Shown here piece after piece: positions 5,916 to 46,494 of a stretch of 64,000 bases of DNA (positions within the stretch are counted from its first letter, which is position 1; each line of letters starts with the position of its first letter). A model generated the notes under the pieces. That model searched no databases. It saw nothing but the letters and a program-made list of their open reading frames with translations, and was not told the DNA's origin. Location: contig CALUPB010000002.1 of NCBI GenBank assembly GCA_944322585.1, forward strand, positions 4,729-68,728, given 5' to 3'. The stretch is from an uncultured Bacteroidales bacterium. GTDB lineage: Bacteria > Bacteroidota > Bacteroidia > Bacteroidales > UBA932. The translations under genes and the position numbers were made by a program.

Positions 5916-5927
5916 GGGAGAAACCGG

Positions 5928-8868: not shown

Positions 8869-8881
8869 ATCCGTATCTTTG
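8851..8881 (+). promoter_or_regulatory. Bacteroidetes sigma-A promoter of the AAA/DUF4143 gene
   Basis: TTTG (8851-8854), 19-nt spacer, TATCTTTG (8874-8881). Confidence 0.75.
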
Positions 8882-8903
8882 CAGGAGAAATGAAACTTAC
8901 GCC

Positions 8904-10193: not shown

Positions 10194-10199
10194 TTGCCC

Positions 10200-10218
10200 T
10201 GAAAAATCAAATCCGCTG
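10200..10218. repeat. Right copy of 19-bp direct repeat TGAAAAATCAAATCCGCTG
   Basis: Identical to 8690-8708; starts 7 bp after the AAA gene stop codon. Confidence 0.95.
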
Positions 10219-10220
10219 CA

Positions 10221-10252
10221 TTTGGCGAAAGACACAAAGATTGCTAAATTTG
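10221..10252 (+). promoter_or_regulatory. uvrA promoter
   Basis: TTTG (10221-10224), 20-nt spacer, TAAATTTG (10245-10252). Confidence 0.75.
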
Positions 10253-10347
10253 TCGGTATCTGTGCTTCCGGCATCGGGACAGACATCCGGTATCCGCCGG
10301 TCCTGTCCCTAAAGAGGAAGCGACAGAGCCGTATAATCATAAGCATC

Positions 10348-28529: not shown

Positions 28530-29918
28530 ATGAAACATAATATGAAAATACCTGTAATTGCAGCCGCCGTTATGGAGCTGCTTACGGTCACGGGATGCGA
28601 CAACAGCCAGTACAGACTGGAAAACCTGTACCCTGAAGAGTACCATAAGATAATTTCTTTTCAGGATGATGCGGTCAGCACGGACATAATGAAAATCTAT
28701 GACATAAACATAGATATCACCGAGACCGTCACACTGCTCAGAGGAGGAAGCGACCCTTCCTTGAAAGCCGTTGCCAGACTGCGGCCGATGACTGCCGAAG
28801 AAGCGGAAACCTATCTGACAAGCGGGACAGCACTCGACCCGCAATACTATTCAATCCGGACTCCGGAAATAGTCCTTGAACCTGAGGAAAGGTACAAGAG
28901 CGTGGAGATCGTATTCAGTGCTGAAAACATAGCCGGCATCAGGGACGCGATGTCGTCGGCTTCCGGAACACCGTTCTGTCTCGCCCTCATGCTCGACGGT
29001 CTGGACGGTACTTCCGTCAATGCGGACAAAAGCTATTTCGTGAGGGAAATCGAACTCGGGAAACCTGAAATAACCGTTACCGGAAGCTCTCTGACAGACA
29101 ATCCTGACTCATGGAGCACGGACCTCTCCGCAATGATGGACGGAGACAATATCTGGGATTTCAGCTGCAGGCTGCTCCGGGATGACTCATATATCGAAAA
29201 TTACAACTACAGTACCGGAGGGAACTACAATGCCCTGCCTGAAGGGACAAAAGTAAACTTCTCCGGCAACGGACAGCTCGATTTCATCAGCGGGAACCAC
29301 TTTTCACAGAACAGCGTAACTCTGACAGTATCCAAAGAAGGATTCGACTTCGACAATGCACCGTATGTCCTTCCGGTCGTCCTGAATATGGGAGAACTGG
29401 ATTTCGAAATGGCGAACCCGTATTACATGGTTATTGAAGGCGTAATTACCCTTACCGAAGACATGCTTTCCTGCCCTTTCGACCTGAGCGGCTATGACGG
29501 ACAGGGTCTGGCAGGCCTGATTGACGGGAATCTCTATGACACATACTGGCACACTCCTTACAATGACGATGCAGGAGGATACTATTTCAATGAAGACTAT
29601 GGACATTATTTCGACATCGATCTCGGGAAAGAAGTATCGAAAATAAAATGCAGGTACTACAACAGACCGGGACAGGAATCAAACTGGCCGAAAGACATAG
29701 AACTATATATCGGCAATGACGGAGAGAACTGGACACTGCTCGGCTCCCGGACAGACATCCCGGTCGAAGACCAGACAGTGGAACTCGGTCCTTTCGATTC
29801 TGAAGAGCCGTTCAGTTATCTGCGTATAAGCATAAAGAAAAACCAGCAGGATCTCAGACCGGGAGTGGACGACGGCGCATGCTCGCACATGTGTGAATTC
29901 CAGCTTTTCGGGATCTGA
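28530..29918 (+). CDS. DUF1735 lipoprotein with C-terminal F5/8 type C (discoidin/CBM32-like) domain
   Basis: Lipobox (VTGC); DUF1735-like Ig domains; C-terminal LIDGNLYDTYWH...FDIDLG...YYNR...MCEFQLFG. Confidence 0.8.
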   Translation: MKHNMKIPVIAAAVMELLTVTGCDNSQYRLENLYPEEYHKIISFQDDAVSTDIMKIYDINIDITETVTLLRGGSDPSLKAVARLRPMTAEEAETYLTSGTALDPQYYSIRTPEIVLEPEERYKSVEIVFSAENIAGIRDAMSSASGTPFCLALMLDGLDGTSVNADKSYFVREIELGKPEITVTGSSLTDNPDSWSTDLSAMMDGDNIWDFSCRLLRDDSYIENYNYSTGGNYNALPEGTKVNFSGNGQLDFISGNHFSQNSVTLTVSKEGFDFDNAPYVLPVVLNMGELDFEMANPYYMVIEGVITLTEDMLSCPFDLSGYDGQGLAGLIDGNLYDTYWHTPYNDDAGGYYFNEDYGHYFDIDLGKEVSKIKCRYYNRPGQESNWPKDIELYIGNDGENWTLLGSRTDIPVEDQTVELGPFDSEEPFSYLRISIKKNQQDLRPGVDDGACSHMCEFQLFGI

Positions 29919-29946
29919 CCGGACCCTTTTGTCAAACACCGATACA

Positions 29947-32058
29947 ATGAAAAATACAATTCTCTTCCTGACAGTTCTCTCTGCTGTCGTCTCCGGGTTG
30001 GAAGTTTCAGCCAGGAATGCCGACGGATCCAGATGGCATATAATAGATGGAGGCTACTCCATCCGATGGGATATACGGGACGACATTCCGCACTACGACC
30101 ACATCGAAATGAGCGGCGAGCAGGTGTCCGTAGTCTATTATTACGGAGTCAATGAGGACGGCTCATTCTCCATGGAGCGGTCGGTGATATGGCCCATGCT
30201 GCGCACCGTTCCCAATGACACACATGCAAGCCTCACTGTCCGGTTCGGGAGGGATTTCCTGTCGGGAATGACAGTGGACGGGAAACCGCTTGAAGACGAA
30301 AAAGTCGAATCCATCACTTTCGACGGGCTGCTGCACGCGGAATGCACATACGGCAATGCCGACGTAAAGGTAACGTCATGCTACTTCCCGTCCACGACAA
30401 GGGCTGCCGTCTGTGAGGAATATACGGTAACGAACACCGGAGACAAGACAGTGACCGTCTTTGTCCCTGCCGTCAGAAATGTCACTTCGACCGATCCCGA
30501 TGCAGGGACTGAAGGGAGCTATACACTGATAGAGGCTACCGGACACTTAAAGGACAGGACATACAGCATCGCTCCAGGGAAGAGCATTGTTTTCGGCGCC
30601 AGCATCAAGGGACTGAAAACACCGCAGGTGGAGATCCCGACAGACTCCGGGAAAGAAAAAGCGGAAAGGGAGAAGTTTGTGGAAATGATATGCAATGGCC
30701 TCGTACTCGACAGTCCGGATCCCGTACTGAACACGATGTTCGGATTCGCGAAGATCCGCGGGGCGGAAAGCATTTTCCGAACAAGAGGAGGACTTATGCA
30801 GTGTCCCGGAGGAGAGGCATACTATGCGGCAATCTGGTGCAATGACCAGGCAGAGTACATCAACCCGTTTTTCCCTTTTCTCGGATACGACAGGGGAAAC
30901 GAGTCCGCAATCACCAGTTTCATGCATTTCGCCAGATACATGAATCCCGAATTCAACTATGTGCCGTGGTCAGTGATTGCCGAGGGCTATGATGCATTCG
31001 GCCAGTTCGACAGGGGCGATGCCGCCATGCTCGCCTACGGGGCTTCAAGGTATGCCCTCGCCTTGGGCGACATGGAGACTGCCGAAGCACTGATGCCGCT
31101 CATTGACTGGAGTCTGGAATACTGCCGCCGCAAAATCAACGGAGACGGGGTAGTGGCTTCCACTGCCGATGAACTGGAGCTGCGTTTCCCGGCCGGAGAC
31201 GCCAATCTGTGCACTTCATCGCTCTACTATGACGCCCTGAGATCCACGGCATGGCTTATAGAGACTATGGCAGAAGAATATGCTTCCGGCGGCGGGGCCC
31301 CGGATAACGGCACGGCCGCCGGCAATCCGGACAACGGAGGCATTGCAGGGCCAGGCGGAACAGAAGAGGCCGCAGCCAGGGCGGTCGACCTCAGGGCGCA
31401 GGCCGACACCCTCAGGAAAAACATCGAGAAGCACTTCGGTGCCGAGATGAACGGGTTCCATACCTACAGATATTTCGAAGGCAATGACGTACTGCGCTCC
31501 TGGATATGCATCCCTCTCGTCATGGACATATTCGACAGGAAAGAAGGCACGGTCCAGGCCCTGCTCTCCCCTGTCCTCTGGTCGGAAAACGGAGTCTATA
31601 CCGAGGCTGGTACGGATGTATTCTGGGACAGGGCCACACTCTACGCATTACGGGGCATCTATGCTGCCGGTTATCCGGATAAAGCGACAGAACATCTGGC
31701 TGCCTATTCACGTCACCGCCTGCTCGGCGACCATGTCCCTTATCCGGTAGAGGCATGGCCCGAGGGAAACCAGCGGCATCTTTCCACCGAAAACGCCCTC
31801 TATTGCAGGATATTCACCGAAGGCATCCTCGGCTTCCGTCCGACAGGTTTCAGGACATTCACCCTCCGTCCGCAGCTTCCTGACGGTTGGGATCACTTTA
31901 CCCTGCGCAACATACACGCCTGCTCCGACCGTCCGTACGACATCATTGTAAAGCGTTCAGGGAAACGGCTTTCCATAACCGTCCGGCAGGACGGCAGGAA
32001 CATCCTCCGCTACAATGTCACCGAAGGCAAGGCCATCGAAGTCTCCATGCCCGGATGA
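29947..32058 (+). CDS. Secreted six-hairpin (alpha/alpha)6 glycosidase-like protein, family not assigned
   Basis: Start MKNTILFL at 29947 with signal peptide; YYAAIWCNDQAEY, DRGDAAM, DELELRFPAG, SSLYYDAL, YPVEAWPEG; beta-sandwich ends. Confidence 0.7.
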   Translation: MKNTILFLTVLSAVVSGLEVSARNADGSRWHIIDGGYSIRWDIRDDIPHYDHIEMSGEQVSVVYYYGVNEDGSFSMERSVIWPMLRTVPNDTHASLTVRFGRDFLSGMTVDGKPLEDEKVESITFDGLLHAECTYGNADVKVTSCYFPSTTRAAVCEEYTVTNTGDKTVTVFVPAVRNVTSTDPDAGTEGSYTLIEATGHLKDRTYSIAPGKSIVFGASIKGLKTPQVEIPTDSGKEKAEREKFVEMICNGLVLDSPDPVLNTMFGFAKIRGAESIFRTRGGLMQCPGGEAYYAAIWCNDQAEYINPFFPFLGYDRGNESAITSFMHFARYMNPEFNYVPWSVIAEGYDAFGQFDRGDAAMLAYGASRYALALGDMETAEALMPLIDWSLEYCRRKINGDGVVASTADELELRFPAGDANLCTSSLYYDALRSTAWLIETMAEEYASGGGAPDNGTAAGNPDNGGIAGPGGTEEAAARAVDLRAQADTLRKNIEKHFGAEMNGFHTYRYFEGNDVLRSWICIPLVMDIFDRKEGTVQALLSPVLWSENGVYTEAGTDVFWDRATLYALRGIYAAGYPDKATEHLAAYSRHRLLGDHVPYPVEAWPEGNQRHLSTENALYCRIFTEGILGFRPTGFRTFTLRPQLPDGWDHFTLRNIHACSDRPYDIIVKRSGKRLSITVRQDGRNILRYNVTEGKAIEVSMPG

Positions 32059-32180: not shown

Positions 32181-34484
32181 TTATTTCACGGTAAGTACAG
32201 CGTAATCGGATACGGTACTGCTTCCGCCGATGAATATCCTGAATTCGCCTGGTTCGACGACCTTTTCAAGATCATGGTTGTAGAAGCCCAGCAGGTCTGC
32301 ATCCACAGGGAACTCCACCGTACAGCTTTCCCCAGCGTCAAGCTCCACTTTCCTGAATCCCTTGAGTTCCCGGACAGGCCTGGTGCTGGAAGCCACCATA
32401 TCCCGGATATACATCTGGACAATCTCCTTTCCCTTCCTGCTGCCGGTATTCCGGACCTCCACACTCGCAGTCACCTGCCCGTCCGAGCTCATTTCTGCAG
32501 AACTGAGAACAACGTCCCCGTACTCGAACGAAGTGTAGCTCAGTCCGTACCCGAAAGGATAAAGCGGGTCATTGTCCACATCCAGATAGTTGGAACGGAA
32601 TTTCTGGAACCATTTGCCTTTGTCGAGCGGCCGTCCTGTATTCTTGTGGGCATAGTACACCGGTATCTGCCCCACATTCTTCGGGAATGACATGGTAAGT
32701 TTCCCGCAAGGATTCACATCTCCGAACAGGACGTCCGCAACGGCATGCCCGGTCTCCGAACCGCCGAACCAGACATCGAGTATCGCCGGAACATTCTCAT
32801 CTTCCCAGCACAGTGTAAGCGGCCTGCCGTTGAAAAGGACAAGCACTACAGGCTTTCCCGTAGCGACCAGCGCCTTGAGCAATTTCCGCTGTACATCAGG
32901 AAGGCCTATGTCGGAACGGCTCGAGCACTCGCCGGACATCTCCGACGCTTCACCGAGAACAGCTACCACCACATCCGCCCTGGCTGCCGTCGCCAACGCC
33001 TCAGAAAGCAGCTGCGCGTCACTCCTGCCGTCGCGCGGAATCGTCCTGCCGAACATCGTGGCCCGTTCCTCGTATTCCCTGTCTCCTATAAGATTGCTTC
33101 CTTTTGCATACAGAAGCCTGACCTTGTCCCCGACACATTCCTTCAGCCCGTCCATTACCGACACACAGCTGTCAAGACGGGCTGCCACGCTCCATGTCCC
33201 GGCCATGTTGGACCGAGTATCGGCAAGAGGCCCTATCACGGCGACTGTCCCTCCTTTCCTGAGAGGGAGTACGGAATTCTCGTTTTTAAGGAGGACAAAG
33301 GATTCGGCCGCTATACGTCTCGCAGCAGCGCGATGGCTGTCGCAGAACACAAGATTTTCCACGTCTTCCGGCCGGCAGAACCTGTACGGGTCATCGAACA
33401 GACCCAACCGGTATTTGGCTTCAAGTATACGGCGGCACGCATTGTCGAGGACATCCATGGATATCTTCCCTTCCTCTATGCCCTTCCCCACATATTTGAA
33501 CAGCCCCTCGCTCACCATATCCATATCGAGTCCCGCCTCTATAGCCCGCAGGCTGACTGTCTCCATGTCACCGATCCCGTGGGCCACCATCTCCATGACC
33601 CCGGTATAGTCGGAAACCACAAATCCGTCAAAGCCCCATCTGTCTCTCAGGACATCCTGCATGAGCCATTTGTTGGCAGTGGCCGGAATGCCCTCCACTT
33701 CGTTGAAGGACATCATCACGCTGCCGGCTCCTGCATCCACAGCTGCCTTGTACGGTTCGAAATACTCGTTGAACATACGCTGACGGCTCATGTCGACGGT
33801 GTTGTAGTCCCTTCCGGCCTCAGAAGCCCCGTACAGGGCAAAATGCTTGACACAGGCCATCATCTGCCCGGGCTCCGTCAGTTGTGACTCTCTGTCGCTT
33901 CCCTGATAGCCGCGCACCATGGCCGCAGCTATGGCACTGCCAAGGAACGGATCTTCACCGCTTCCTTCCGCAATCCTGCCCCATCTCGGGTCCCTCGATA
34001 TGTCCACCATCGGACTGTATGTCCAGCATATCCCGTCCGCACTCGCCTCCGCCGCGGCTATCCTGGCGGATTCCTCGACGGCATCCATATCCCAGCTGCA
34101 TGAAAGTCCGAGAGGTATGGGGAATACCGTCTCATAACCGTGCACGACATCCATTCCGAAAAGCAACGGAATGCCCAGGCGGGATTCTTCGACCGCTATC
34201 CTCTGTATCTCACGTATCTTTTCATAACCCTTGATATTGAACAGCCCTCCGATCTCTCCCCTCCTTATCCTGTCGGCATCGGTGCTGCTTCGGGCCTCGC
34301 CTGTCGTTATCTCCCCGGCTGTCGGAAGATTGAGCTGTCCTATCTTCTCTTCGACAGTCATCCGGTCCATCAGTCCTGAAATGAATCTGTCCATCTCCCT
34401 GTCTGCATTCCCGCCGGGAACGGAAGTGCATGCCGCCGTAAAGGCCACGGCGGCACAAGCGAAAATAAATTTTCTGAAATCCAT
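32181..34484 (-). CDS. bglX: GH3 beta-glucosidase (BglX-like)
   Basis: Likely start MDFRKFIF at 34484; SRLGIPLLFGMDVVHG, RDPRWGR, CVKHF, nucleophile SDY, acid/base region MSGE, FN3 tail. Confidence 0.95.
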   Translation of the reverse strand: MDFRKFIFACAAVAFTAACTSVPGGNADREMDRFISGLMDRMTVEEKIGQLNLPTAGEITTGEARSSTDADRIRRGEIGGLFNIKGYEKIREIQRIAVEESRLGIPLLFGMDVVHGYETVFPIPLGLSCSWDMDAVEESARIAAAEASADGICWTYSPMVDISRDPRWGRIAEGSGEDPFLGSAIAAAMVRGYQGSDRESQLTEPGQMMACVKHFALYGASEAGRDYNTVDMSRQRMFNEYFEPYKAAVDAGAGSVMMSFNEVEGIPATANKWLMQDVLRDRWGFDGFVVSDYTGVMEMVAHGIGDMETVSLRAIEAGLDMDMVSEGLFKYVGKGIEEGKISMDVLDNACRRILEAKYRLGLFDDPYRFCRPEDVENLVFCDSHRAAARRIAAESFVLLKNENSVLPLRKGGTVAVIGPLADTRSNMAGTWSVAARLDSCVSVMDGLKECVGDKVRLLYAKGSNLIGDREYEERATMFGRTIPRDGRSDAQLLSEALATAARADVVVAVLGEASEMSGECSSRSDIGLPDVQRKLLKALVATGKPVVLVLFNGRPLTLCWEDENVPAILDVWFGGSETGHAVADVLFGDVNPCGKLTMSFPKNVGQIPVYYAHKNTGRPLDKGKWFQKFRSNYLDVDNDPLYPFGYGLSYTSFEYGDVVLSSAEMSSDGQVTASVEVRNTGSRKGKEIVQMYIRDMVASSTRPVRELKGFRKVELDAGESCTVEFPVDADLLGFYNHDLEKVVEPGEFRIFIGGSSTVSDYAVLTVK

Positions 34485-34561
34485 AAAACAATTATGGCTC
34501 ATCGTCCACATATCATTAAAGGGGCCGGACAGCATCACGGACACTGCCCGGCCCGGAAAAG

Positions 34562-35380
34562 CTATTCTTTAGGGACATAAATGGCAAATGCCGCCTTTAT
34601 CAGCTCATGCTGCCAGTCCTCCAGCTTCGGAGCATCCTTTACGGCAAGGTTGAATCCCCTGTAATTGAACTCTCCCCACCATGCATCATCCACGACCACA
34701 AGGTTCTGGGTGACATTGTCCGGACGCTTCACATCATCGGCTTCATTGAGGTTCACCCATCCGTCAGGCCTGTACTGGAAACCGCTCTTCACCACTATAA
34801 GGGACCCGTTAGGGATATCCTCCTTATCGAAGATAGGGGTCGCATCATAATTCTTCATCGTGAAATTCAGGTCTGAATTGCCTGCATCGGAATTATAATG
34901 CGCACCTTCGGTTATCACAAATTCAAGGCGGGTATAGTCTGCCGGATCATAGCCTGCATTCACTATAATCTCCTCGACTCCCGGCTTAGGGACGAAGATA
35001 CCGAATGAATATGACATGTCATCGTCTTCGGTAAGAGGCACCTTAGGATTCTTCGACAGGTTGAATCCCCTGAAGTTGAATTCTCCCCACCATGCCTCAT
35101 CGACTTCCACAACCTGTATCTGGACCTCTGCCGGACGGTTGCTGTTCGGCTGGTCGACAGCGACCCAGGCATCCGGTCTGTACTGGTATCCGGCCTTCTG
35201 CACTATGACGGAACCTACAGGTATATCGGATTTTTCGAAAACCTGTGTCGCGGCATAGATAGCCTGGTCGGTAAGTACGGTCGTATTACCGTTGCCGGAA
35301 TTGTAATAGCCAGGCTGCGTCAGCTTGAGGGTAAGCTGGGTATAGTCATCAGGATTATATCCTGCCGCCTCCAGAATACT
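34562..35380 (-). repeat. Intragenic tandem duplication (offset 411 bp)
   Basis: TTGAATCCCCTG...CTCCCCACCATGC at 34650 and 35061; protein motifs YRPDxW and WWGEFNxRGFNL each occur twice. Confidence 0.9.
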
Positions 35381-37114
35381 CGTCAGGTTTGAATTGACAT
35401 CCTCGTCATCCTCGGTAATGGTTGACTGAGTCACCTCGTACGGCTTCTCATAGGCATTGTTCACAGCCTCCTTTATCGCATCGACCTTGGCCTTGGTATA
35501 AATGTAGCCTTCCGGCTTCCAGCTGATCGCGTCGATGTCGCATCCGGTAATCTGCTTTGCCCACATCAGGGCTGCCGCATAGCGGCCTGCGGAATATTCG
35601 AGATGATAGCCGTCACGGGTCAGGTTGTCGCCGTAGAGACTTGTCCTGAGGTTCTGGATGGCGGTACCGCAAGGGATGACAATCTCGAATTCCGGATGTG
35701 CGTTGACTTTTGTCTGCACTGCATTCAGGATGGCATTGTACATCGTCATCTGGTCCTTGTTGTAGTTGGCGAACTCGGAATGCGTCGAATTGCCCTGATA
35801 AGCCCATGTCATATGCCACATCAGCTCCGCTCCCGGACAGTATTCGGTCACTTTCCGCACAAGTGTCGTGAGATAAGGCTCATATCTGTCGGCCATTCCG
35901 GACGAACCGCTGGCCTGCTGCATGGAGATATAGTCCCATTCGTCGCTCTTTATGGCGTCCACCGAACTGAAATTGTCGATGTTCTGCCATGTACCCGCCG
36001 TATTGATACGGTAAGTATATGCTCCGGCCCCGCTTTCTATATTGCCGGCATGCGTTTCAAGGGTACATCCCGGGATATACAGGTTTCCGAGCTTGATTGA
36101 TGTGTAGCCGGCGTCCTGAAGCACCTGCCAGAGATATTCCATGGCATCGTCGGAGAAACTGTTGCCTATTGCAAGAATTCTCAGCGACTCTTCGGTCTTC
36201 ATTCCGGACTGCCTTATCGTCACGGTCTTGGTGATTCCTCCATATTTGCTGGTGAAGGTAACGGTAGCCGTCCTCTCGTCAGGAGTAGTGTTGGCAGAGA
36301 CATTGAATACATAGGTGTTGGTACTGCTGGATTTGGTCGTGGATTCGGTTATCCACTGTTCTTCAGGCATCTTCACGACAACCGGAACATTGCTTGTGAC
36401 TTCCACCTTGACTTCGCCTCCTGCCGCAGGAAGGGCATAGGCCGATTTGGTCAGGACTATTTCCTGCTCGACACCTTCCTGATAAACGGTAAACTCTTCC
36501 GTCACCTCACCGTTGCTGAGGATTATCGTACCTTCCCTGACAGTGAAGGCTGTATTTTCGTCTACTGTAAACCTGATTTCAGTCTCGACTGCCTTGGAAG
36601 CCGGCTCGATGGTGATCCAGGACTTGTCCTTGTCGGCAACCGTTGCCGTGCAGGCATTCTTCGAACGGACGACAATCGCCTGCAGGCCTCCTGTGGCCGG
36701 CACTTCTATCCTGTTGGAAGTCATGGATATGCTGTTGGCCGGTTTCTGGGTCACGGTGATTGTCTTCCTCGCCACTCCGGACTTGATAAGGAACGATGCG
36801 TTTCGCTCGTCCACTTCCGTATTTTCCGCGAACTCGATGGAGATTGTGTTTTCCCCTATCGCTCCGCTCGTAGGACTGATTGTAAACCATTCATCCGCCC
36901 TGTCATTGACCATGGAGGCAGTCCAGCCGCCTTTGGTCGTGAACGCAATGGTCCTTACGCCTTCATTCTCGTCCACACAGATATTCGCGTCCGCCTCGTC
37001 CGCGAGAACGATGGACGAATTTTTCGGTTCCGGCGGGAATTTGTCTATCTCGCTCTCGCAGCTCCATAACAGGGAGCAGGCGACCGCCGCCATCAGATAT
37101 AATGTTGTTTTCAT
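34562..37114 (-). CDS. Lipoprotein with 3 BACON domains, a DUF4886 SGNH hydrolase and two C-terminal repeats
   Basis: Lipobox (LWSC); three ..N...ER.A.... BACON-type units; GNSF, WDYISMQQAS, WHMTWAY, RDGYH; duplicated ~137-aa tail. Confidence 0.85.
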   Translation of the reverse strand: MKTTLYLMAAVACSLLWSCESEIDKFPPEPKNSSIVLADEADANICVDENEGVRTIAFTTKGGWTASMVNDRADEWFTISPTSGAIGENTISIEFAENTEVDERNASFLIKSGVARKTITVTQKPANSISMTSNRIEVPATGGLQAIVVRSKNACTATVADKDKSWITIEPASKAVETEIRFTVDENTAFTVREGTIILSNGEVTEEFTVYQEGVEQEIVLTKSAYALPAAGGEVKVEVTSNVPVVVKMPEEQWITESTTKSSSTNTYVFNVSANTTPDERTATVTFTSKYGGITKTVTIRQSGMKTEESLRILAIGNSFSDDAMEYLWQVLQDAGYTSIKLGNLYIPGCTLETHAGNIESGAGAYTYRINTAGTWQNIDNFSSVDAIKSDEWDYISMQQASGSSGMADRYEPYLTTLVRKVTEYCPGAELMWHMTWAYQGNSTHSEFANYNKDQMTMYNAILNAVQTKVNAHPEFEIVIPCGTAIQNLRTSLYGDNLTRDGYHLEYSAGRYAAALMWAKQITGCDIDAISWKPEGYIYTKAKVDAIKEAVNNAYEKPYEVTQSTITEDDEDVNSNLTSILEAAGYNPDDYTQLTLKLTQPGYYNSGNGNTTVLTDQAIYAATQVFEKSDIPVGSVIVQKAGYQYRPDAWVAVDQPNSNRPAEVQIQVVEVDEAWWGEFNFRGFNLSKNPKVPLTEDDDMSYSFGIFVPKPGVEEIIVNAGYDPADYTRLEFVITEGAHYNSDAGNSDLNFTMKNYDATPIFDKEDIPNGSLIVVKSGFQYRPDGWVNLNEADDVKRPDNVTQNLVVVDDAWWGEFNYRGFNLAVKDAPKLEDWQHELIKAAFAIYVPKE

Positions 37115-37259: not shown

Positions 37260-38882
37260 TCAATGCAGGATAACCGGCAACTGGTGTATCCTGCCACCCG
37301 GAGCGGTAAGCCTTATGAAATACTTCTCTCCCCGGGTTACCCTGTCCGCCCCGAAGGCAAGACTGTTCAGGCCGGAGACCGCTTCAGGAGAAGCACTGTA
37401 TACGCATTCTCCCGTGGATTCCCGGACTACCTCTACCTTTGCCGTCCCTCCGTCACCCAGATAATAGTCCAGCTCGTACTTTTCCCTGTCCGGATGCTGC
37501 ATCATGTCCATATATCCGGAACCGGTCTCGATATTGGCGAACGGGAACCCGTCCTCGAACGACGGCATCCCTATGTCGGCCTTTTCGAGAGCAGCCTTGA
37601 CATGGTCATTGGACATCAGCAGATTCCAGATAAGGCCGCTGCGGTAGTTCTCGATCATCACTACGATAGGCCCCTGGTCTATTGCAAGATGATCCCGGTT
37701 GGCAGCCTTTTCGGAAGGCTTGTATGCATCCGCAAGCCCGAACTCTCCCTGACACTCGGATATTCTGTCCATATTAAGCAGCACCTGCGTCGAATAGAAA
37801 GGAGTGTACGGATATGCGGACAGTGCAGCCGTAGGAGCAATCACCCCGTCGTCATTCTGCGGATTGCGGGCTGAGTAATTCGGGCTCGAACCGGCTCCGT
37901 AGCAGGCTGTAAGACCCCACATGTCCACGCCGTAATCATAGGTTTCCGGAGCGGAATGGATGCAGTAATGTCTGTTGACCATGGTGTGGGAAAGGTTCTG
38001 CCGCCAGTACCATGCCTTGTCATCCTGCATGAAACGGGGATCAAACCCGAGGAAAGTATAATGGCTGAAGAACAGCGGTCCGCCGAGCTCGTTCCCGAGC
38101 GGAAGTTCATAGCCGTATGTCTTCCTCTGCGGGAATGACTGGAGGTTCCAGCCTCTTCTGTAGGTTTCGGCATCTATGCAATGCCCCTCGGGAGCGGCAA
38201 GAGCCATGAGATAAGTCACCAATGCCTCGTTCCAACCGGAAATCTTCAGGGAATAGGTATCGGTCTCCGAATACCAGAGCCAGTACAGGCCGTCCCCGTT
38301 CTCTCCTGTATATCCCGACCAGTCTACAGTCCTGTACAGATTGTCTATGTCTTCCCGCAGGCCTGTCTCCACATCATCGGTACCGTCGAAATATTCGTAT
38401 GCAGCCAGCAGACCGGCCATCATGAAGGAAGATTCCACAAGGTCTCCGGTCGCTTTCTGGTCCCCGAAAGCCACATAGGACCCGTCAGGACTGTACCAGT
38501 GCGACCATGCCCCCTTGTACCTGTCAGCTTCCGTAAGGAAATCCACGATTTTACGGAGCTGTCCTGTCCCTTCCTCCCTGGTAATCCATCCTCTCTCCAC
38601 ACCGACAATCAGGGCCATCACACCGAATCCGCTGCCACCGGTAGTAACCGTATTGCCGCGGTTATTGCCTTCATAGGCCATACCGCTCTGCGGATCCGCC
38701 CCGTTGTAGAAGAATTCGAATGCGGCCTTCTGCTGACGGTCGAGGACACGCCTCACGGCCGACGGCGCATAAGTCTGGTCCCCGGGAGAGAACCGGTCTC
38801 CCCCGGTATCGGCTCCGCTGCCGGAACTGCACGAGCAGGCGGACAGAGCCAGGACTACAGACAATGCAAATATCTTGTTCAT
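37260..38882 (-). CDS. GH144 (glucoamylase-family/DUF3131) beta-1,2-glucanase-like lipoprotein
   Basis: Likely start MNKIFALS at 38882 with lipobox (LSAC); TTGGSGFG, GDLVES, GWNEAL, GPLFFSHY, WGLTA, IAPTAAL, AIDQGPIVVMIENYRSGLIW. Confidence 0.88.
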   Translation of the reverse strand: MNKIFALSVVLALSACSCSSGSGADTGGDRFSPGDQTYAPSAVRRVLDRQQKAAFEFFYNGADPQSGMAYEGNNRGNTVTTGGSGFGVMALIVGVERGWITREEGTGQLRKIVDFLTEADRYKGAWSHWYSPDGSYVAFGDQKATGDLVESSFMMAGLLAAYEYFDGTDDVETGLREDIDNLYRTVDWSGYTGENGDGLYWLWYSETDTYSLKISGWNEALVTYLMALAAPEGHCIDAETYRRGWNLQSFPQRKTYGYELPLGNELGGPLFFSHYTFLGFDPRFMQDDKAWYWRQNLSHTMVNRHYCIHSAPETYDYGVDMWGLTACYGAGSSPNYSARNPQNDDGVIAPTAALSAYPYTPFYSTQVLLNMDRISECQGEFGLADAYKPSEKAANRDHLAIDQGPIVVMIENYRSGLIWNLLMSNDHVKAALEKADIGMPSFEDGFPFANIETGSGYMDMMQHPDREKYELDYYLGDGGTAKVEVVRESTGECVYSASPEAVSGLNSLAFGADRVTRGEKYFIRLTAPGGRIHQLPVILH

Positions 38883-38901
38883 AAGGTTTGTACGTATCAT
38901 A

Positions 38902-40401
38902 TCAATATCCAGGATTCTGGGTAAGTATTCCGTTCGAAGCATCTATTTCCTGCTGAGGGATAGGATAAAGCTCCTGCTTGTTCGGGACGAAATATTCGAT
39001 TTTTTCCTCTGCTTCTCCCCAGCGGATAAGGTCGAAATAACGCTCGAACTCGAGGGCAAGCTCAAACCGGCGCTCCTCATGGATAAGATCCCTGAGCTTG
39101 GTCTGGTCACGCTCCGTAATCTCAGGAAGGGCATCGGCGTCGTTCCCCCTTGCGCGTGCCCTCACCATTTCGAGTTTTGCAAGAGCCTCGTCGGTCTCCC
39201 CGAGCTCGTTGGCGGCCTCGGCATACATAAGGACTATGTCGGAATATCTTATCATTCTGATATTTAGCCATGTAGCATTAGGATTGTTCCTGTTGTACAT
39301 CTGCTGCTCATAAAGCGGGGCATATACCTTGGCATTGTAGTGAGGATTCGGCACTTCCGCAGACTGGAAGACCACTCCGTCTCTGACATCGCCGTCACTG
39401 AGGACTGTGGCATGATAGCGGGGATCATCTTTCATATCATCCCTAAGCTGTTTGCTCGGGCCGTTCATGCCCCATCCGCAGTTAGGCTGTCCGCGGAATC
39501 CCTGGATGCTCGCCCACTGTTTGTTACCACCTGTCGAGATGGAAAGTGACGGCTTATCGTCCACGTCGAACTCATATATTGACTCCGGTCCGAACTCATA
39601 TTTCTCCGTCCATATCTCGTCGAACGGGGTGGAAAGGTCATTGTCTCCGGACTCGATGATCTGTCTGCAGTAACTCATGGAAGTGGCCCAGTCTTTCTGG
39701 TACATGTAGATCTTGGCCAGCACCGCCCTTGCGGAATTCTGCGAAACCCTTCCGAGATTCCCTGCCTCCACGAGAGCCTTGCGGGTTTCGAGATACGGGA
39801 CGGACCAGTTGAGATCCTCTATGATATTTGCATATACCTGGGTATACGGAGTACGCGGAGGGGTCTTTTCGTCCTGTTCGAGCTCCTGCTCCACGAACGG
39901 CACGTCCCCGAAAGCCTGCACAAGTCTGAAATATGCGTGTGCACGGATCGTAAGGGCCTGGGCCTTGTAGTTGTTCACTTTCTCCGCAGTGAGACTTTCA
40001 TCGAACTGGCCTGCCGCATCGCAGTATTCGATGGCTCTGTTACAGTATGTGATGACGCTGTACCACGCATTGTAGTACTGTCGTACCACACCTGCGCTTG
40101 CATCCCATGTATGGGCGTCTATCACCATCGCCCAGGACATGTCGGAAGCCGTACTTCCCTTGTCGGCATCATCCGTCGCTATGGAATGGAGACACGGGGC
40201 TCCGGCATTGAAATCATAGCTGTGCTGTGCGTTATACGCCTGGGCGAGTTCTCCTTCGATAAGGATATTATAGGGGATTTCTTCAGCCTCGAAATTTTCC
40301 GAGTGCCACTGGCCGTACGGATATCTTTCCAGAAAATCCTCTCCGCAGCCTGCAAGGACGAATCCCGCAACGGCCAGACTTATTATGGATATGTTTTTCA
40401 T
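38902..40401 (-). CDS. susD: RagB/SusD family lipoprotein
   Basis: Lipobox (LAGC); RAHAYFRLVQAFGDVP, IRYSDIVLMYAEA, ERRFELALE, QNPGY. Confidence 0.95.
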   Translation of the reverse strand: MKNISIISLAVAGFVLAGCGEDFLERYPYGQWHSENFEAEEIPYNILIEGELAQAYNAQHSYDFNAGAPCLHSIATDDADKGSTASDMSWAMVIDAHTWDASAGVVRQYYNAWYSVITYCNRAIEYCDAAGQFDESLTAEKVNNYKAQALTIRAHAYFRLVQAFGDVPFVEQELEQDEKTPPRTPYTQVYANIIEDLNWSVPYLETRKALVEAGNLGRVSQNSARAVLAKIYMYQKDWATSMSYCRQIIESGDNDLSTPFDEIWTEKYEFGPESIYEFDVDDKPSLSISTGGNKQWASIQGFRGQPNCGWGMNGPSKQLRDDMKDDPRYHATVLSDGDVRDGVVFQSAEVPNPHYNAKVYAPLYEQQMYNRNNPNATWLNIRMIRYSDIVLMYAEAANELGETDEALAKLEMVRARARGNDADALPEITERDQTKLRDLIHEERRFELALEFERYFDLIRWGEAEEKIEYFVPNKQELYPIPQQEIDASNGILTQNPGY

Positions 40402-40410
40402 GACTTGAGA

Positions 40411-43400
40411 TTAGAAAGTAAGGTTGATACCGAAAGTATAGGATGAAGGGATCGGATATGTACCGCCGTCATCTATGTTGGCATTGAGGATACCTCCGCC
40501 GATTTCAGGTGTATAGCCTGTCGTATTCTTGAATGTAAGAGGATTCTGGGCCTGGATATACACGTACACGTTGCTGAACTTGATGGCATCCAGGGCCTTC
40601 TTCGGGATTGTGTATCCGAGCTGGATATTGCGGATCCTGAAATACGAACCGTCCTCTATCGCCACGGTAGAGCAGAGGGAGTTCTGCGGTCTGGTGGAGT
40701 CGAGTATAGGGAGCTTGTCGGAAGTCCCCGGGCCGTGCCACCTTCCGAGCTGTTCCTTATAGTAATTGTACTGGGCATAGGACTGCCAGTATTTCGTGTT
40801 CATGATATCCACACCTGTCACGCCGTTCATGTCGACGCTAAGGTTGAAATTCTTGTAACCCAATCTGATGTTGATACCGTACATGAACGAAGGAATGGTC
40901 TTCCCTATGAAATCGCGGTCCTGGTCGTTGAACTTTCCGTCATTGTTGAGATCGGCATATTTGATGTCTCCCGCCTTGAACACATACGAAGAAGTGTGGT
41001 TGGCATTGAATTCATCGGCCTCCTCCTGGGTCTGGAACACGCCCTCTGCGACATAGCCGTAGAAAGAACCTACAGGCTGTCCCACTGCCGTACGGTGATA
41101 GTTGCCGGAAGTGATGTAGCTGTCATCATTGCCGAGTGCAAGGACCTTGTTCTTGATTGTGGAACCGTTGAAACTTACATTATAGTTGAAGTCCCCGATA
41201 CGGTCTTCCCATGACACCACGAATTCCACGCCCTGGTTGCTGAGCGAACCGGCATTCGTGATGGCATAACCGCTGCCGACCGATACCGTAGGCTGCACAT
41301 GGGCAAGCAGATCGGATGTCTTCTTGTAATAGTACCCGAGTTCGACTGCAAGACGGCTGTTGAACATCCTCATGTCGGTACCTATATCGAATGTGGAAAC
41401 GGTCTCCCAATGGATGTTCTGGTCCACCTGATATGAAGTCACAGGAATATAATATGTCTCGCCGTCGGATGTGATGGTCGTCCCACGAGGGTTTATGGTA
41501 GGGTAGGCCAGATAATCGCCTATCTTGTCATTACCCGCGACTCCGTAGCTTGTCCTCAGCTTCCAGAAGTTCAGCCAGTCGGCCTTCTGCATGAATTTCT
41601 CGTCGGAAATCACCCAACCGAGGCCGACAGAAGGGAAGAGTCCCCAGCGGTGGTCACGTCCGAACTTGGACGAACCGTCGTAACGGAGGGTCGCAGTGAG
41701 AAGATAACGGTCGAGAACGGTAAGGTTGACCCTGCCGAGCCAGGAAATGAAGGCATTGGAAGAACGCCAGTCCGAATTCTTCCTGGACTTGTCATCACCG
41801 AGATTCAACATCCGCATGCTCTCGGGAATGTTCCAGTACGAGCCGTTGATAAGGGTATCGACGCTGGCACTGAAGCCTACTCCGTCATATTCCTTGGCGG
41901 TGAATCCGACCACGGCATTGACCCTTACCTTGTCTGTCACCTTGGCATAGCTCAGGGTAATGTCCGCCTGGCTTTTCTTGTATTCCCCGACAGACCTGCT
42001 GAAAGAGGTATATCTGCTGTACTGGGAAGACGCCGAACCTCCGTTGGTCACATAATATTTAGGATTGTATGAGCTGGAGAACTGGGCGGTATAGTCGAAA
42101 TATCCAGCTGCCTTGAATGTGAAATCCTTGAGGAAATTGATCTCGACAAAGCCGTTGAACAGTCCCTGGTATGCATAGCTCTCGCTGTTACCGCGTGAGA
42201 TGAGCATGGCTGCCACCGGGTTTCCGACATCCTTCTGGATATTGTCGGCCGGCGTGAAATACGAGCCAAGGTTGTTCTCGTCCCAATAGTCTTCGGAATC
42301 ATAAGGTCCGTAGGTAGGAATGACCCTCGCAGTAGAAGAAAGGCTGACATTGGACGGGTCTGTCGTACGGTAACGCAGATTGGCCTGGATTCCGGCCTTC
42401 AGCCAGTTGCCGACCTTGAACTCGTTGTTATGCCTTATGTTGATGTTGTCATAGGCATTGTATTTCACGACTCCCTCATTGTGGAGATAGCTCAGGGAAG
42501 TGATTGAGGAGCCCTTTTCCCCTCCCCTCGACAGGGTCACGGTATGATTGGTGAAGAAAGCCGGACGGAGAACGAGATCTATCCAGTCCGTTCCTTCTCC
42601 GGTGAGCTGCGGAACCCACGGGGTAGCTTCGGGATCCATGTTCGTAAGGAGCTCGTTGTAGAGCATCGTGAATTCGTCGGCATTGCAGAGCTTCAGCCTG
42701 TCCCTGTTGTGGACTACTGATACTCCGGCCGTACCGCTGTAGCTTACGTTCACTCCGTCGTCCTCGGCCTTTCTGGTAGTGATGATGATTACGCCGTTGG
42801 CTCCCTGCACACCGAACATCGCAGTGGAAGAAGCGTCCTTGAGGACTTCGATGGAAGCGATGTCGTTGAGGTTAAGCCAGGAAATGTCATCCGTCAGCAT
42901 ATTGTCCACTACATACAGCGGCGTCGTGCTTGCCCTTACGGTCGAAACACCTCTCAAAGTCACTGTAGGAGTACCTTCGGCTGCTCCGGAATTGATGATG
43001 TACAGTCCCGGCACCTTGCCCTGGAGGGCCTCCAGAGGGCTGTTGGTGGCGGCCATCTTGATGTCATCGCCCCTTACCGTCGTGATGGAACCGGTAAGGT
43101 CCCTTTTCCTCTGTGTTCCGTAGCCGACTACGACCGTCTCTTCGAGTTCGAGGATTTCATCCTCCATGACCACATCGAATTTACCCCCCCCGGCGATATT
43201 CACCTTCAGGGTTTTCATTCCAGTCATGGAAAAGGTCAGCTCCGCCCCGGAAGGGACCTCGATGCTATAGTTGCCATCATTGTCCGTGATAGTATAGATG
43301 TCTCCATACGTCACGGCAACACCGGGTAATGGCTCTCCGAATGTCTTGCCCTTGACGGACCCGGTAACCTTGACATTTGTCTGCGCTGCCGCAGTCATGA

Positions 43401-43443
43401 CGGCAAGCAGAACTGCAAGTAAAACTGTCAGTGTTTTTTTCAT
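40411..43443 (-). CDS. susC: SusC/RagA TonB-dependent transporter
   Basis: Likely start MKKTLTV at 43443; VLKDASSTAMFGVQGANGVIIITT; ends GINLTF. Confidence 0.96.
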   Translation of the reverse strand: MKKTLTVLLAVLLAVMTAAAQTNVKVTGSVKGKTFGEPLPGVAVTYGDIYTITDNDGNYSIEVPSGAELTFSMTGMKTLKVNIAGGGKFDVVMEDEILELEETVVVGYGTQRKRDLTGSITTVRGDDIKMAATNSPLEALQGKVPGLYIINSGAAEGTPTVTLRGVSTVRASTTPLYVVDNMLTDDISWLNLNDIASIEVLKDASSTAMFGVQGANGVIIITTRKAEDDGVNVSYSGTAGVSVVHNRDRLKLCNADEFTMLYNELLTNMDPEATPWVPQLTGEGTDWIDLVLRPAFFTNHTVTLSRGGEKGSSITSLSYLHNEGVVKYNAYDNINIRHNNEFKVGNWLKAGIQANLRYRTTDPSNVSLSSTARVIPTYGPYDSEDYWDENNLGSYFTPADNIQKDVGNPVAAMLISRGNSESYAYQGLFNGFVEINFLKDFTFKAAGYFDYTAQFSSSYNPKYYVTNGGSASSQYSRYTSFSRSVGEYKKSQADITLSYAKVTDKVRVNAVVGFTAKEYDGVGFSASVDTLINGSYWNIPESMRMLNLGDDKSRKNSDWRSSNAFISWLGRVNLTVLDRYLLTATLRYDGSSKFGRDHRWGLFPSVGLGWVISDEKFMQKADWLNFWKLRTSYGVAGNDKIGDYLAYPTINPRGTTITSDGETYYIPVTSYQVDQNIHWETVSTFDIGTDMRMFNSRLAVELGYYYKKTSDLLAHVQPTVSVGSGYAITNAGSLSNQGVEFVVSWEDRIGDFNYNVSFNGSTIKNKVLALGNDDSYITSGNYHRTAVGQPVGSFYGYVAEGVFQTQEEADEFNANHTSSYVFKAGDIKYADLNNDGKFNDQDRDFIGKTIPSFMYGINIRLGYKNFNLSVDMNGVTGVDIMNTKYWQSYAQYNYYKEQLGRWHGPGTSDKLPILDSTRPQNSLCSTVAIEDGSYFRIRNIQLGYTIPKKALDAIKFSNVYVYIQAQNPLTFKNTTGYTPEIGGGILNANIDDGGTYPIPSSYTFGINLTF

Positions 43444-43467
43444 AATGTTATGTGGTTTGTGGTGCTG

Positions 43468-43598
43468 CAAAAATATAATCCCCCAGACAAAAACGGCAAA
43501 AAGGACGTACTCGAAAAACACTACATACAGAAGGCAGCCGTGACAGGCTGCCCTACAAAAGCACTACATACATGCTTAAATATCTGTTTATCAGATAT
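43468..43598 (-). promoter_or_regulatory. susC promoter and candidate LuxR-type operator
   Basis: TATTTTTG (complement of 43468-43475) with TTTG 21 nt upstream; CACTACATAC at 43519 and 43562; CTACA at 43553 and 43564; ATATCTG/CAGATAT palindrome at 43580-43598. Confidence 0.6.
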
Positions 43599-43610: not shown

Positions 43611-46466
43611 TTACTTTTTCGCTGACGACAATGACATCAAGTATACATTGAGCGGCATGGAAGAATCCACCTGAAGTTTCTTCCTCAACCTGTATTTGGC
43701 CACTTCCGCCCCCTTGACCGTAATACCCATGATGTTGGCTATCTCTTTCGTGGACATGTTGAGACGAAGATAGGCGCAAAGCCTGAGGTCATTCGGAGTA
43801 AGGTCTCCGTGCATCGCCTTGAGCGATCTGAAGAACGACTTGTGGATAAGGTCGAAATTAGTGAAAAAATGATTCCAGTTGTCTTCCGTGAATTCCCCGT
43901 CCCTTATTATCTCCATAAGCCTGTCATAATCCTTTTTATGGATACCCGGACGGTCGCTGTAATAAATCCTTGACAGTTCCTCCGAAAGATGCTTGAGGAC
44001 ATTGTTCCTTCTGGCCTCGATCAGCGAATATGTCGCAAGCTCCTTGCTCTTGAGCAGGACGGATTCCTCCAGCTGCTCGTTCCTTATCGACATCAGATCC
44101 CTCTCATGCTTCAGCATTTCCTGCTCCATCGCTTCCGCATTCTTTTTGGCAAGGGCAGTGCGCTGGCGCTCCAGCAGTTTCCTGACAAATATTACCGCCA
44201 TGGCGCACAGCCCCGCAAATGACAGGACATAAAGCATCAGAAATACAGGCGAAGCGAACAGGGAAGGTCTGACCGTGACAGAGATTTCCTTTCTTGCGAC
44301 CTCGTGCCCTATTGCATCGGATGCCCTCAATTCCAGCCTGTAGGTCCCGGCCGGCAGTCTCTGCCAGGACGCTGTCATGTCGTCCCCGAGCATCTGCCAT
44401 GACCAGTCGTATCCGGACAGCATGGATTCTACCTTTATGCGGTTGGGGAACCGTTCTCCTGTCAGGGCGGCATACACCGAAAGTCCGGACTTGTTCGGCA
44501 CCGTGATTCTGTCGTCGGATATCTTGTAAGTCTGCCTGCTGTCCGCCTTTTGCGAACATATCCCCCTGAAGAGGATTTTCACTGCAAGGGAATCCGGAGA
44601 TTGCCCCGAGACATAGTGATGGACAAGAAATCCCTGTTCCGTACCCACAAGATACCTGTCATCGTTCCATGATGCGACCGCACTCGGCTCGGACATGCTC
44701 ATGTCATATTTGGAGCAGTCTACAAAATCGATTATATCGGCCCTGCCGTCAGAGGAAACACCTGCAAGAACCGCCCTGTCGTCCCTTATCAGCCAATAAC
44801 GGCCATGTCTGGCATCCGTTACCATGTCGCAGGTCCTGAACTCCCCGAGGCTCTCGTTGAAAACCTCATACGGCATCATCCTGCGGGTCATGTCATCATA
44901 ATAGCTGAAGCCGTCGGCATCGTGGAAAAGGACGCGGCCTTCCACCTTACAGATGTGCCTGTCCGAACCGCCCCAGTATTCCACGTCCACTACATCCTTG
45001 AGATCTCCGGAAAGACGTAACCTGTACAGACCCGTATACATATGTTCAAGCCAGAGATTGCCGAGATGGTCGACCTCGATCCTGTTGACCGGACGGAGAA
45101 ATCCGTTGACGGTATTCCGGAACCGCCATTTCCCGTCCCCGTCCTGCTCATAGACATACAGAGATGTGAACGAGCCCTGGATCATATACATCCTGCCGTC
45201 ATCTCCCGGAACAAGCCGAGGTTCCGTACCGCCGGGAGCATCGGACAACACAGTGTATCCCCCTCCGTTGTCAAGCCGGTACGTATTCTTCTCGTCCCCG
45301 ACTATGATCTGTCCCATGACTTCCGAAATGCTCCACACCTGATTCGCAGGCCTGATTTTACGGGAAAGCCTCTCCGCATGCTGTCCGGATGACAAATCCA
45401 CGACAGAAAGGCCCTGCTTCGTACCGGCATACAGCCTGTCCCCGCAAACATATGCTGCCGTAATCTCCACAGTATTCGACATGGACGGAGGTATCATATA
45501 GTCCCCGTCCTTGAAAATGACGACAAGGCCCTTTGCAAGGGCAGCCCATACATTACCGCAAGAGTCCTCAATCAGACAATGTACCGTACTGTTTATAAGA
45601 CCGTTGTCAGAATCGAGATGCCACAGCGTATGCCCCGTTTCGGAGAATGCATATATTCCCGAGCCGCGGAATCCGACAATGACAGTCCCGTCAGAACACC
45701 GGATTGCCCTGTTGGCGATCCCCCAATCCTTTCCAAGGCCGTCCACCCTCCTGTAGCCGTCCCGACCTGAAACATACATGCCATCCTTCTCGCATATTGC
45801 GATTCTGCCGCCGGAAGAGGAATGGAATATCTTCATGGCAGGCCCAGGAAGAGCGTCCGGCGGAATAATGTCATAACCTTCGGAAACTCCGTCGTATTTC
45901 CTGATTTCTCCGGAACGCTGCACCAAATACAGACTGCCTTCAAGGACATAATGCCATGATGTAAGGGCATAATGCTGGGACACTTCCTCCGTATCCGTGT
46001 CATATACATAGTAAGTCGAAAAGAATATGAAGAAAATCCTGTTCCCCACTCTCTCTATATACCAGATCTGGTCATTACCGAGCTGTTCACTGTCAAAGCG
46101 TTCTGCGAGAGACACATAAGTCAGGGAACCGTCCTGAGCCGGCACAAGATAGCCGAATTCCCTCAAACCGCCGATATAGACCCTGTCGCTGTCCCGGTCG
46201 GCATACAGGGAACGCAGAAAAACATTCCTGCCTTCCCCGAAAGGATACAGTTTCTCCCATGATTTCCCGTTGAAACGCAACAGGCAGTCATCGTTACAGG
46301 CATATATATAGCCGTTGACATCCTGCGCCATAGACCAGTTCTGGTTGGCAGCTCCGTAGTCCTTCGGTTTATAATTGGTAAAGAACGGAGGGAATGCACC
46401 GGCCGACATGCCGGCAAGGCATATCAGGGAAAAGGTCAGGAGCAGTTTCAGGACAGTCTCTTTCAT
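43611..46466 (-). CDS. Periplasmic beta-propeller/Y_Y_Y sensor fused to a LuxR-type HTH regulator
   Basis: Likely start MKETVLK at 46466; propeller repeats, LPAGTYRLELRA, TM helix, and LTPNDLRLCAYLRLNMSTKEIANIMGITVKGAEVAKYRLRKKL. Confidence 0.9.
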   Translation of the reverse strand: MKETVLKLLLTFSLICLAGMSAGAFPPFFTNYKPKDYGAANQNWSMAQDVNGYIYACNDDCLLRFNGKSWEKLYPFGEGRNVFLRSLYADRDSDRVYIGGLREFGYLVPAQDGSLTYVSLAERFDSEQLGNDQIWYIERVGNRIFFIFFSTYYVYDTDTEEVSQHYALTSWHYVLEGSLYLVQRSGEIRKYDGVSEGYDIIPPDALPGPAMKIFHSSSGGRIAICEKDGMYVSGRDGYRRVDGLGKDWGIANRAIRCSDGTVIVGFRGSGIYAFSETGHTLWHLDSDNGLINSTVHCLIEDSCGNVWAALAKGLVVIFKDGDYMIPPSMSNTVEITAAYVCGDRLYAGTKQGLSVVDLSSGQHAERLSRKIRPANQVWSISEVMGQIIVGDEKNTYRLDNGGGYTVLSDAPGGTEPRLVPGDDGRMYMIQGSFTSLYVYEQDGDGKWRFRNTVNGFLRPVNRIEVDHLGNLWLEHMYTGLYRLRLSGDLKDVVDVEYWGGSDRHICKVEGRVLFHDADGFSYYDDMTRRMMPYEVFNESLGEFRTCDMVTDARHGRYWLIRDDRAVLAGVSSDGRADIIDFVDCSKYDMSMSEPSAVASWNDDRYLVGTEQGFLVHHYVSGQSPDSLAVKILFRGICSQKADSRQTYKISDDRITVPNKSGLSVYAALTGERFPNRIKVESMLSGYDWSWQMLGDDMTASWQRLPAGTYRLELRASDAIGHEVARKEISVTVRPSLFASPVFLMLYVLSFAGLCAMAVIFVRKLLERQRTALAKKNAEAMEQEMLKHERDLMSIRNEQLEESVLLKSKELATYSLIEARRNNVLKHLSEELSRIYYSDRPGIHKKDYDRLMEIIRDGEFTEDNWNHFFTNFDLIHKSFFRSLKAMHGDLTPNDLRLCAYLRLNMSTKEIANIMGITVKGAEVAKYRLRKKLQVDSSMPLNVYLMSLSSAKK

Positions 46467-46494
46467 CTCGGACAGGCTCAAGTCTTTAATACTG

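Follow-up and report, generated by a model that had tools for sequence, protein, structure and literature searches.

A Conserved Tandem Domain of DUF4886 Esterases: A Candidate Substrate-Targeting Module in Herbivore Gut and Rumen Bacteria

Classical carbohydrate-binding modules (CBMs) are fused to many enzyme classes. In the CE2 esterases, a non-catalytic N-terminal jelly-roll of ~110-140 residues (CE2_N, PF17996) is fused directly to the SGNH esterase domain of exported glycan-degrading proteins. The domain described here, for which we use the working label X (~138 aa, a module of ~140 residues), shares these features, and the CE2-type CBM/jelly-roll on its SGNH esterase is likely its closest functional analogue, which by analogy would suggest a substrate-engaging role. 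X is nevertheless unlike CE2_N: the sequence match is at E 0.14 on one repeat and in one of 65 family members, and X is predicted to be mixed alpha/beta with two helices. Accessory domains of phage tail-associated enzymes likewise lie beside esterase or phosphoesterase domains, although X compares to them with borderline scores, to predicted targets only, and with no sequence similarity to phage records or PHROGs.

BACON domains, also modules of Bacteroidota surface proteins, are thought to be mostly spacers. Once assumed to bind glycans, BACON (PF13004) is present in the same 850-aa protein as X; the two are unrelated sequence families, BACON being N-terminal and its models missing X. The enzymatic partner of X is DUF4886 (PF16227), a family with no characterised member and no known activity (PMC9487903), represented in the PDB by 4i8i (BACUNI_01406, Bacteroides uniformis). 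DUF4886 looks like an obligate partner of X, yet 4i8i lacks X, and X is a separate domain outside the DUF4886 Pfam model.

An earlier note on this DNA had proposed that X is a new CBM, plausibly for beta-1,2-glucan, a ligand for which its author knew of no established CBM family. The latter statement is roughly right, with one qualification. CBM92 of Chitinophaga pinensis, a 12-strand beta-trefoil with three Trp-Glu sites that prefers beta-1,6-glucan, also binds sophorose and sophoropentaose (PMC11039641), and it is the only CBM family with measured binding of these two ligands that our literature search found. X and CBM92 are unrelated, and no sequence or structure search tied X to any solved CBM.

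The Host Lipoprotein and Its Two Repeats

The window, by which we mean the whole stretch of 64,000 nucleotides that was analysed, encodes an 850-aa esterase-like lipoprotein (ORF 34562..37114, minus strand, with its stop codon at 34562-34564) whose C-terminal 277 residues are two copies of X. Its features are as follows.

34562..37114, minus strand: whole gene, with signal/lipobox, three BACON domains, DUF4886 (SGNH), X repeat 1 and X repeat 2
37058..37114, minus strand: signal peptide with lipobox Cys19 (LLWSC), then acidic ESEID; read from the sequence
36215..36970, minus strand: three BACON domain stretches, aa ~49-300, approximate bounds; Pfam
35453..36181, minus strand: DUF4886/SGNH hydrolase domain, aa 312-554; Pfam PF16227 at E 4.5e-80, 4i8i at TMt 0.93
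35396..35452, minus strand: short acidic/polar linker, aa 555-573; modelled at pLDDT ~90
34982..35395, minus strand: X repeat 1 (R1), aa 574-711; self-alignment and profile
34565..34981, minus strand: X repeat 2 (R2), aa 712-850; self-alignment and profile, AlphaFold2 pLDDT 96.7 and pTM 0.90
34647..34701, no strand assigned: 55-nt block, 87% identical to 35058-35112 at a spacing of 411; best and longest direct DNA repeat

The lipobox followed by ESEID is as in surface-exported Bacteroidota lipoproteins, and the protein is presumably exported to the surface. Among the N-terminal domains, the best BACON match covers aa 157-213 and a BACON_2 match covers aa 49-124. The GNSFS block with the Ser and the D..H block of the DUF4886 domain are conserved in the family alignment, and the sole PDB sequence match of the 850-aa protein is 4i8i, confined to the DUF4886 part. 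Beyond aa 565, Pfam has no match, and NCBIfam has none.

R1 and R2 share 61 of 137 positions (45% identity, BLASTP E 2e-40, two small gaps), and the top self-offsets of the protein are 136 and 137 aa. The claim of the earlier note that an unrecognised domain of ~137 aa is tandemly repeated at the C-terminus of the esterase is thereby confirmed, with no significant match in any library searched, and all the motifs that it listed are found in both repeats. Its span of 34562-35380 does hold the repeats, but R1 starts at ~35395, ~15 nt further out, and 34562-34564 is the stop codon. The similarity that it saw at the DNA level, at an offset of 411 bp, is also real: direct repeats within the X region are spaced 408 and 411 bp apart, and the best of them, the 55-nt block at 87%, encodes the VxVDxAWWGEFNxRGFN motif in both R1 and R2. 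A recent duplication was nevertheless rejected, as same-position repeats of orthologues are more alike: R1 and R2 are each nearer to these than to each other, and R1 of the window is 79% identical to R1 of the orthologue P0004 versus 45% to its own R2. The DNA similarity of the two repeats therefore reflects conservation of the motif rather than a recent event. Across the family there is no clean split into R1 and R2 clades, the best split classifying 143 of 240 repeats. Together, these observations point to an old duplication in the lineage of the window, with repeats gained or reshuffled elsewhere.

Tested against Pfam, NCBIfam, PHROG and PDB families, many known CBMs included, X has no significant similarity. 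In a Pfam scan of 65 X members at E <= 1, 23 families appeared, each matching a single member only; DUF6252 (E 0.0012) and CE2_N (E 0.14), found on R1 when single repeats were scanned at E <= 10, were not reproduced by other members and were set aside. No match to X was found among PHROGs, in a profile search of the PDB, or by tblastn against 50,697 phage records, and a literature search found no characterised member.

A Conserved Alpha/Beta Family That Accompanies DUF4886

Residues 575-850, used in a word-seeded protein search, matched 191 proteins; DUF4886 is the sole annotation in nearly all of them, and BACON accompanies it in some. From 65 diverse single repeats (alignment A1) a profile was built and run with HMMER against 1.84 billion representative proteins, yielding 586 clusters at E <= 1e-3, of which 362 also pass E <= 1e-30; nearly every cluster contains at least two matched stretches. 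With few exceptions the hosts are exported proteins, and they come from Bacteroidales and Clostridia of the herbivore gut and rumen. Counts of domain content rest on 252 collected X proteins, in which copies were scored with a local HMM: copy number ranges from one to eight, with two copies in 188 proteins and three in 46. Among the 247 that start with Met, a simple heuristic assigns a signal-like N-terminus to 212 and a lipobox-like Cys to 113.

The AlphaFold2 model of R2, computed with alignment A1, is highly confident (mean pLDDT 96.7, pTM 0.90) and shows a mixed alpha/beta fold with an N-terminal helix, ~8 strands, a short helix bearing a WW pair, a C-terminal helix and a final strand. Together, the profile clusters, the confident fold and the null library searches establish X as a real, discrete and strongly conserved domain family, undescribed in the libraries searched. 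A Foldseek comparison, which the earlier note had proposed as a check, gave no match at E <= 0.001 among 350,542 PDB chains; the best matches (E 0.12, TM <= 0.41) are a scatter of cupins, jelly-rolls, CBM6, CBM29 and CBM86. For the CBMs in particular, CBM6, CBM29, CBM86 and a Xyn10C chain are matched only at E 0.1-0.7 with TM 0.2-0.3. Against the predicted viral structures of BFVD the matches are borderline (E ~1e-3 to 2e-2, TMq 0.5-0.6), to domains of phage proteins annotated as GDSL lipase, GDPD, metallophosphatase, LP65 Orf92 and a 936-group (lactococcal) tail protein extension. These phage-protein domains are the only structural resemblance of X above noise, at a borderline level at which we do not claim family membership. 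A phage origin of X was rejected, given the null tblastn search of the 50,697 phage records and the borderline nature of the BFVD matches.

DUF4886 is the partner of X in 209 of 252 proteins, in the same polypeptide, and in 74 of 80 species loci, and X is thus a DUF4886-associated accessory module. X lies C-terminal of DUF4886 in 180 of these proteins and N-terminal in 29, and most family members have 0-25 aa between the two domains. The reverse link is loose: among 81 related genomes, DUF4886 occurs in 29 (~55 copies) and X in only four. Indeed, the genome of the window holds three DUF4886 genes, with X on one only (ORF 34562..37114); the two that lack X lie outside the window, at G000:C15:192-920 and G000:C4:165056-165820, in frames of 1047 and 647 aa.

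The remaining 43 of the 252 proteins are without DUF4886. In these, X is preceded by BACON, by Listeria-Bacteroides repeats, by GLUG or by lipoprotein N-terminal domains of ~280 residues that carry no annotation. Several Bacteroidales lipoproteins (P0174, P0117, P0085, P0062 and relatives) consist of such a ~280-aa N-terminal domain and two X copies, with no enzyme. These enzyme-less lipoproteins look like surface glycan-binding proteins. Among four DUF4886-less proteins tested, one, P0174 (853 aa), has a Mfa_like_1 fimbrillin-like N-terminal domain (E 2e-11), whereas those of the other three match no Pfam family significantly. The P0117 gene directly follows one for BACON-DUF4886, in an order that recalls surface glycan-binding proteins. 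At the other extreme, giant proteins combine DUF4886 and X with LamG, LRR_5, F5/8-type C and, once, GDPD; the last is P0165 (2050 aa), which carries DUF4886, two X copies and a GDPD glycerophosphodiester phosphodiesterase domain. No fusion of X to a glycoside hydrolase was seen among the X proteins collected. With regard to how CAZy defines a CBM, X has a discrete fold (pLDDT 96.7, modular occurrence), and its host DUF4886 has no demonstrated carbohydrate activity.

A model of DUF4886 with R1 and R2 (AlphaFold2, pLDDT 95, pTM 0.81) has a linker at pLDDT ~90 and no spacer between R1 and R2, which suggests that the three domains form a fairly rigid head; Foldseek with this model returned SGNH enzymes only, the DUF4886 part superposing on 4i8i with TMt 0.93. 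Such a model raises the question of whether X is simply an integral structural extension of DUF4886 enzymes, shaping the cleft, the stability or the geometry as a CE2 jelly-roll packed on its SGNH domain does. The pTM and the confident linker are as this explanation predicts, as are the short or missing linkers, from DUF4886 to X and from one X copy to the next, and the near-confinement of X to DUF4886 proteins, none being seen on glycoside hydrolases; confinement to one esterase family and the high pTM fit an integral enzyme part equally as well as a targeting module. However, the 43 of 252 proteins without DUF4886, the 29 in which X precedes the enzyme, the copy number of one to eight and the absence of X from most DUF4886 proteins, the crystallised 4i8i among them, speak against an integral part, as does the finding that X keeps its conserved residues in proteins without DUF4886. 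We regard this explanation as unlikely, though worth weighing.

The residues in question are, in R2 numbering, Y70, R71, P72, W75, R86, W101, W102, R108, F110 and N111, which are near-invariant. They lie within the signature YRPxxW ... RP ... WWG ... RxFN, each residue of which is conserved at 0.89 or above in 568 X domains, and which both repeats of the window carry. Three near-invariant Arg stand against a sole, moderately conserved acidic residue, D98. Since these residues are equally conserved in the 89 X domains without DUF4886 and in the 479 with it, they serve the module's own fold or ligand and not its docking to the esterase. Among them, the Trp, Tyr and Arg may be purely structural.

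X could also attach to the cell envelope or to another protein and so retain secreted enzymes at the surface of their own producer, in a role like that of SLH or CWB2 in Clostridia. C-terminal X arrays do occur in secreted Clostridia proteins with no other anchor, and the fold weakly resembles domains of phage tail proteins that contact host envelopes. Yet about half of the family are Bacteroidales lipoproteins, already lipid-anchored; X can be N-terminal or internal; and some proteins that carry it also have dockerin, BACON or other domains for attachment or spacing. Furthermore, X has no sequence match to known anchors: in a search of 65 members for Firmicute anchors (SLH, CWB2, ChW, LysM and others), only ChW appeared, in one member at E 0.05, which is noise. 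We therefore consider an envelope anchor very improbable.

The GH144 Locus and Other Genomic Contexts

In the window, the X gene lies in a co-oriented locus of regulator, SusC, SusD, GH144, X gene and GH3, whose other members are:

43611..46481, minus strand: regulator with Reg_prop / Y_Y_Y (hybrid two-component type); Pfam
38902..43521, minus strand: SusC-like (40411-43521) and SusD-like (38902-40401) pair; same locus
37260..38942, minus strand: GH144-type protein (PF10091, E 6e-55), upstream neighbour; Pfam
32181..34544, minus strand: GH3 beta-glucosidase-type protein, downstream neighbour; Pfam

The longest ORFs of the SusD-like gene (ending at 38902, minus strand) and of the GH144 gene (starting at 38942) overlap by 41 nt, and the true start of the latter is probably a downstream ATG, past an unusual N-terminal stretch MLRTEYLPRILDIDMIRTNL. 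Directly downstream of a second set of SusC, SusD and DUF1735-discoidin genes, a 721-aa ORF (window 29893-32058, plus strand) has no Pfam match at E <= 1e-5.

This arrangement is what would be expected if X were a CBM specific for the beta-1,2-glucan backbone, limited to the clade of the window. The gene stands between GH144 and GH3 in a SusC/SusD locus, the closest orthologues (P0031, P0005; loci L020, L022, L024, L041 and L048) keep the position in the GH144 locus, and no CBM family dedicated to this ligand is known, CBM92 binding sophoro-oligosaccharides as a secondary ligand only. In L001 (6886-7689) and L002 (6335-7138), an extra alpha/beta-hydrolase esterase (weak Esterase/Abhydrolase_2) lies between GH144 and GH3 of the orthologous GH144 locus; two types of esterase in one locus fit a decorated substrate.

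The SusC/SusD-GH144-GH3 locus is, however, common to the closest orthologues only. A locus scan with a 10-sequence X alignment, one genome per species, gave 80 loci, nearly all from herbivore rumen or gut metagenome-assembled genomes (Bacteroidales, Cryptobacteroides, Alistipes, Muribaculaceae, Clostridia, Oscillospiraceae, Eubacterium and one Sphaerochaetaceae). DUF4886 is present in 74 of them, against GH144 within 10 kb in five, GH3 in 10 and SusC in 12, and when all ORFs of the 80 loci were clustered, no neighbour family occurred in more than 12. Genome content agrees: among the 81 related genomes X occurs in four, GH144 in 17 and both in two, so that 15 of the 17 GH144 genomes lack X and two of the four X genomes lack GH144. 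Across the order, X was present in one of 201 sampled genomes, that of the window itself. Co-occurrence with GH144, which the earlier note had put forward as a test, thus fails for the family as a whole, at 5/80 loci versus 74/80 for DUF4886 and both genes in only 2/81 genomes.

The other contexts are varied. BACON-DUF4886-X paralogues whose DUF4886 parts are 63-66% identical are found away from GH144 loci, beside alpha/beta-hydrolase esterases and a NagB/PIG-L gene, and X genes of the same genus adjoin metallophosphoesterase/BACON/LamG/GLUG genes, a MatE gene, or NagB/PIG-L. One cluster without GH144 recurs, with BACON-DUF4886-X, one or two alpha/beta-hydrolase esterases (Abhydrolase_3/BD-FAE, Esterase_PHB) and a fused NagB/PIG-L (deaminase/de-N-acetylase) gene, at L021 8252-14868, L019 (= L032) 4649-10436 and L033 8267-14050; Pfam was run on L021 and two L019 genes, and the remainder is assigned from matching ORF sizes. 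In another same-genus locus, L017 (G222:C41, 4590-14362), the gene for DUF4886 with two X copies is flanked by a gene for a GLUG-motif protein and by two for calcineurin-like metallophosphoesterases, one of which also carries BACON and Laminin_G_3; this cluster may be a gene set for stripping surface decorations. Among the Firmicute members, one stands beside GH38, while the rest are orphan genes in housekeeping surroundings. Sequence resembling GDPD is found close to X in four of the 80 loci (L045, L046, L062 and L096), about the frequency of GH144.

These contexts weigh against specificity for the beta-1,2-glucan backbone, as do the 5/80 loci and the genomes in which X and GH144 occur apart: close BACON-DUF4886-X paralogues are found in esterase or housekeeping contexts, and Firmicute members beside GH38 or as orphans. 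Furthermore, the near-invariant residues are the same in GH144 and non-GH144 contexts, which argues against a site specific for beta-1,2-glucan and for a structural role or a ligand common to DUF4886 substrates. A backbone-specific CBM is therefore decidedly improbable.

A Putative Targeting Role

X travels almost only with DUF4886 and not with beta-1,2-glucanases, and is thus probably a new targeting module that is not specific for beta-1,2-glucan. A non-catalytic binding role is the most plausible one because X is modular, varies in copy number, occurs in exported hosts and in some proteins takes the place of the enzyme on a lipoprotein stalk. That X is a new non-catalytic substrate-targeting module of DUF4886 esterases is the reading we favour, with a confidence that is evenly balanced. 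With respect to the proposal of a new CBM, plausibly for beta-1,2-glucan, the discrete and conserved family stands, and so does a putative non-catalytic binding role; the link to GH144 does not hold at the family level.

In such a scheme, X would be an undescribed, independently folding alpha/beta module and an optional accessory of extracytoplasmic DUF4886 SGNH esterases. It would hold the esterase on a polymeric substrate or present the substrate to the active site, as a CBM does. If the packing predicted by AlphaFold2 is correct, the two X copies and the esterase domain would act as one fairly rigid unit, which the BACON domains would keep away from the outer membrane. Judging from the locus, the substrate in the window would be bacterial beta-1,2-glucan, or decorated or acylated forms of it, that the locus imports; X itself is probably not specific for this glucan, since most family members lie in unrelated contexts.

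A more specific and quite unlikely version is that X, as a binding-module family with a fold absent from the PDB, reads anionic or acyl/phosphodiester decorations of bacterial envelope glycopolymers and guides decoration-stripping enzymes in gut and rumen bacteria. Speculatively, the ligands could be succinyl- or phosphoglycerol-substituted beta-1,2-glucans/OPGs or teichoic-acid-like polymers, and the guided enzymes DUF4886 esterases, GDPD and metallophosphoesterases. We keep this version in view because of the GDPD fusion, the GDPD and metallophosphoesterase neighbours, the three invariant Arg, and the fold matches to phage GDSL, GDPD and metallophosphatase proteins.

If X were merely a structural appendage, its description would be a routine addition to domain databases. 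If it binds glycan, X would be the founder of a new CBM family whose fold is, by Foldseek, unmatched in the PDB. DUF4886 is an SGNH family with a solved structure that is widespread among Bacteroidales and Clostridia of the herbivore gut and rumen, and the ligand of X would probably reveal the substrate of these esterases, providing an experimental way in. For the beta-1,2-glucan locus, X could show whether gut bacteria must recognise or strip substituents before GH144 and GH3 act.
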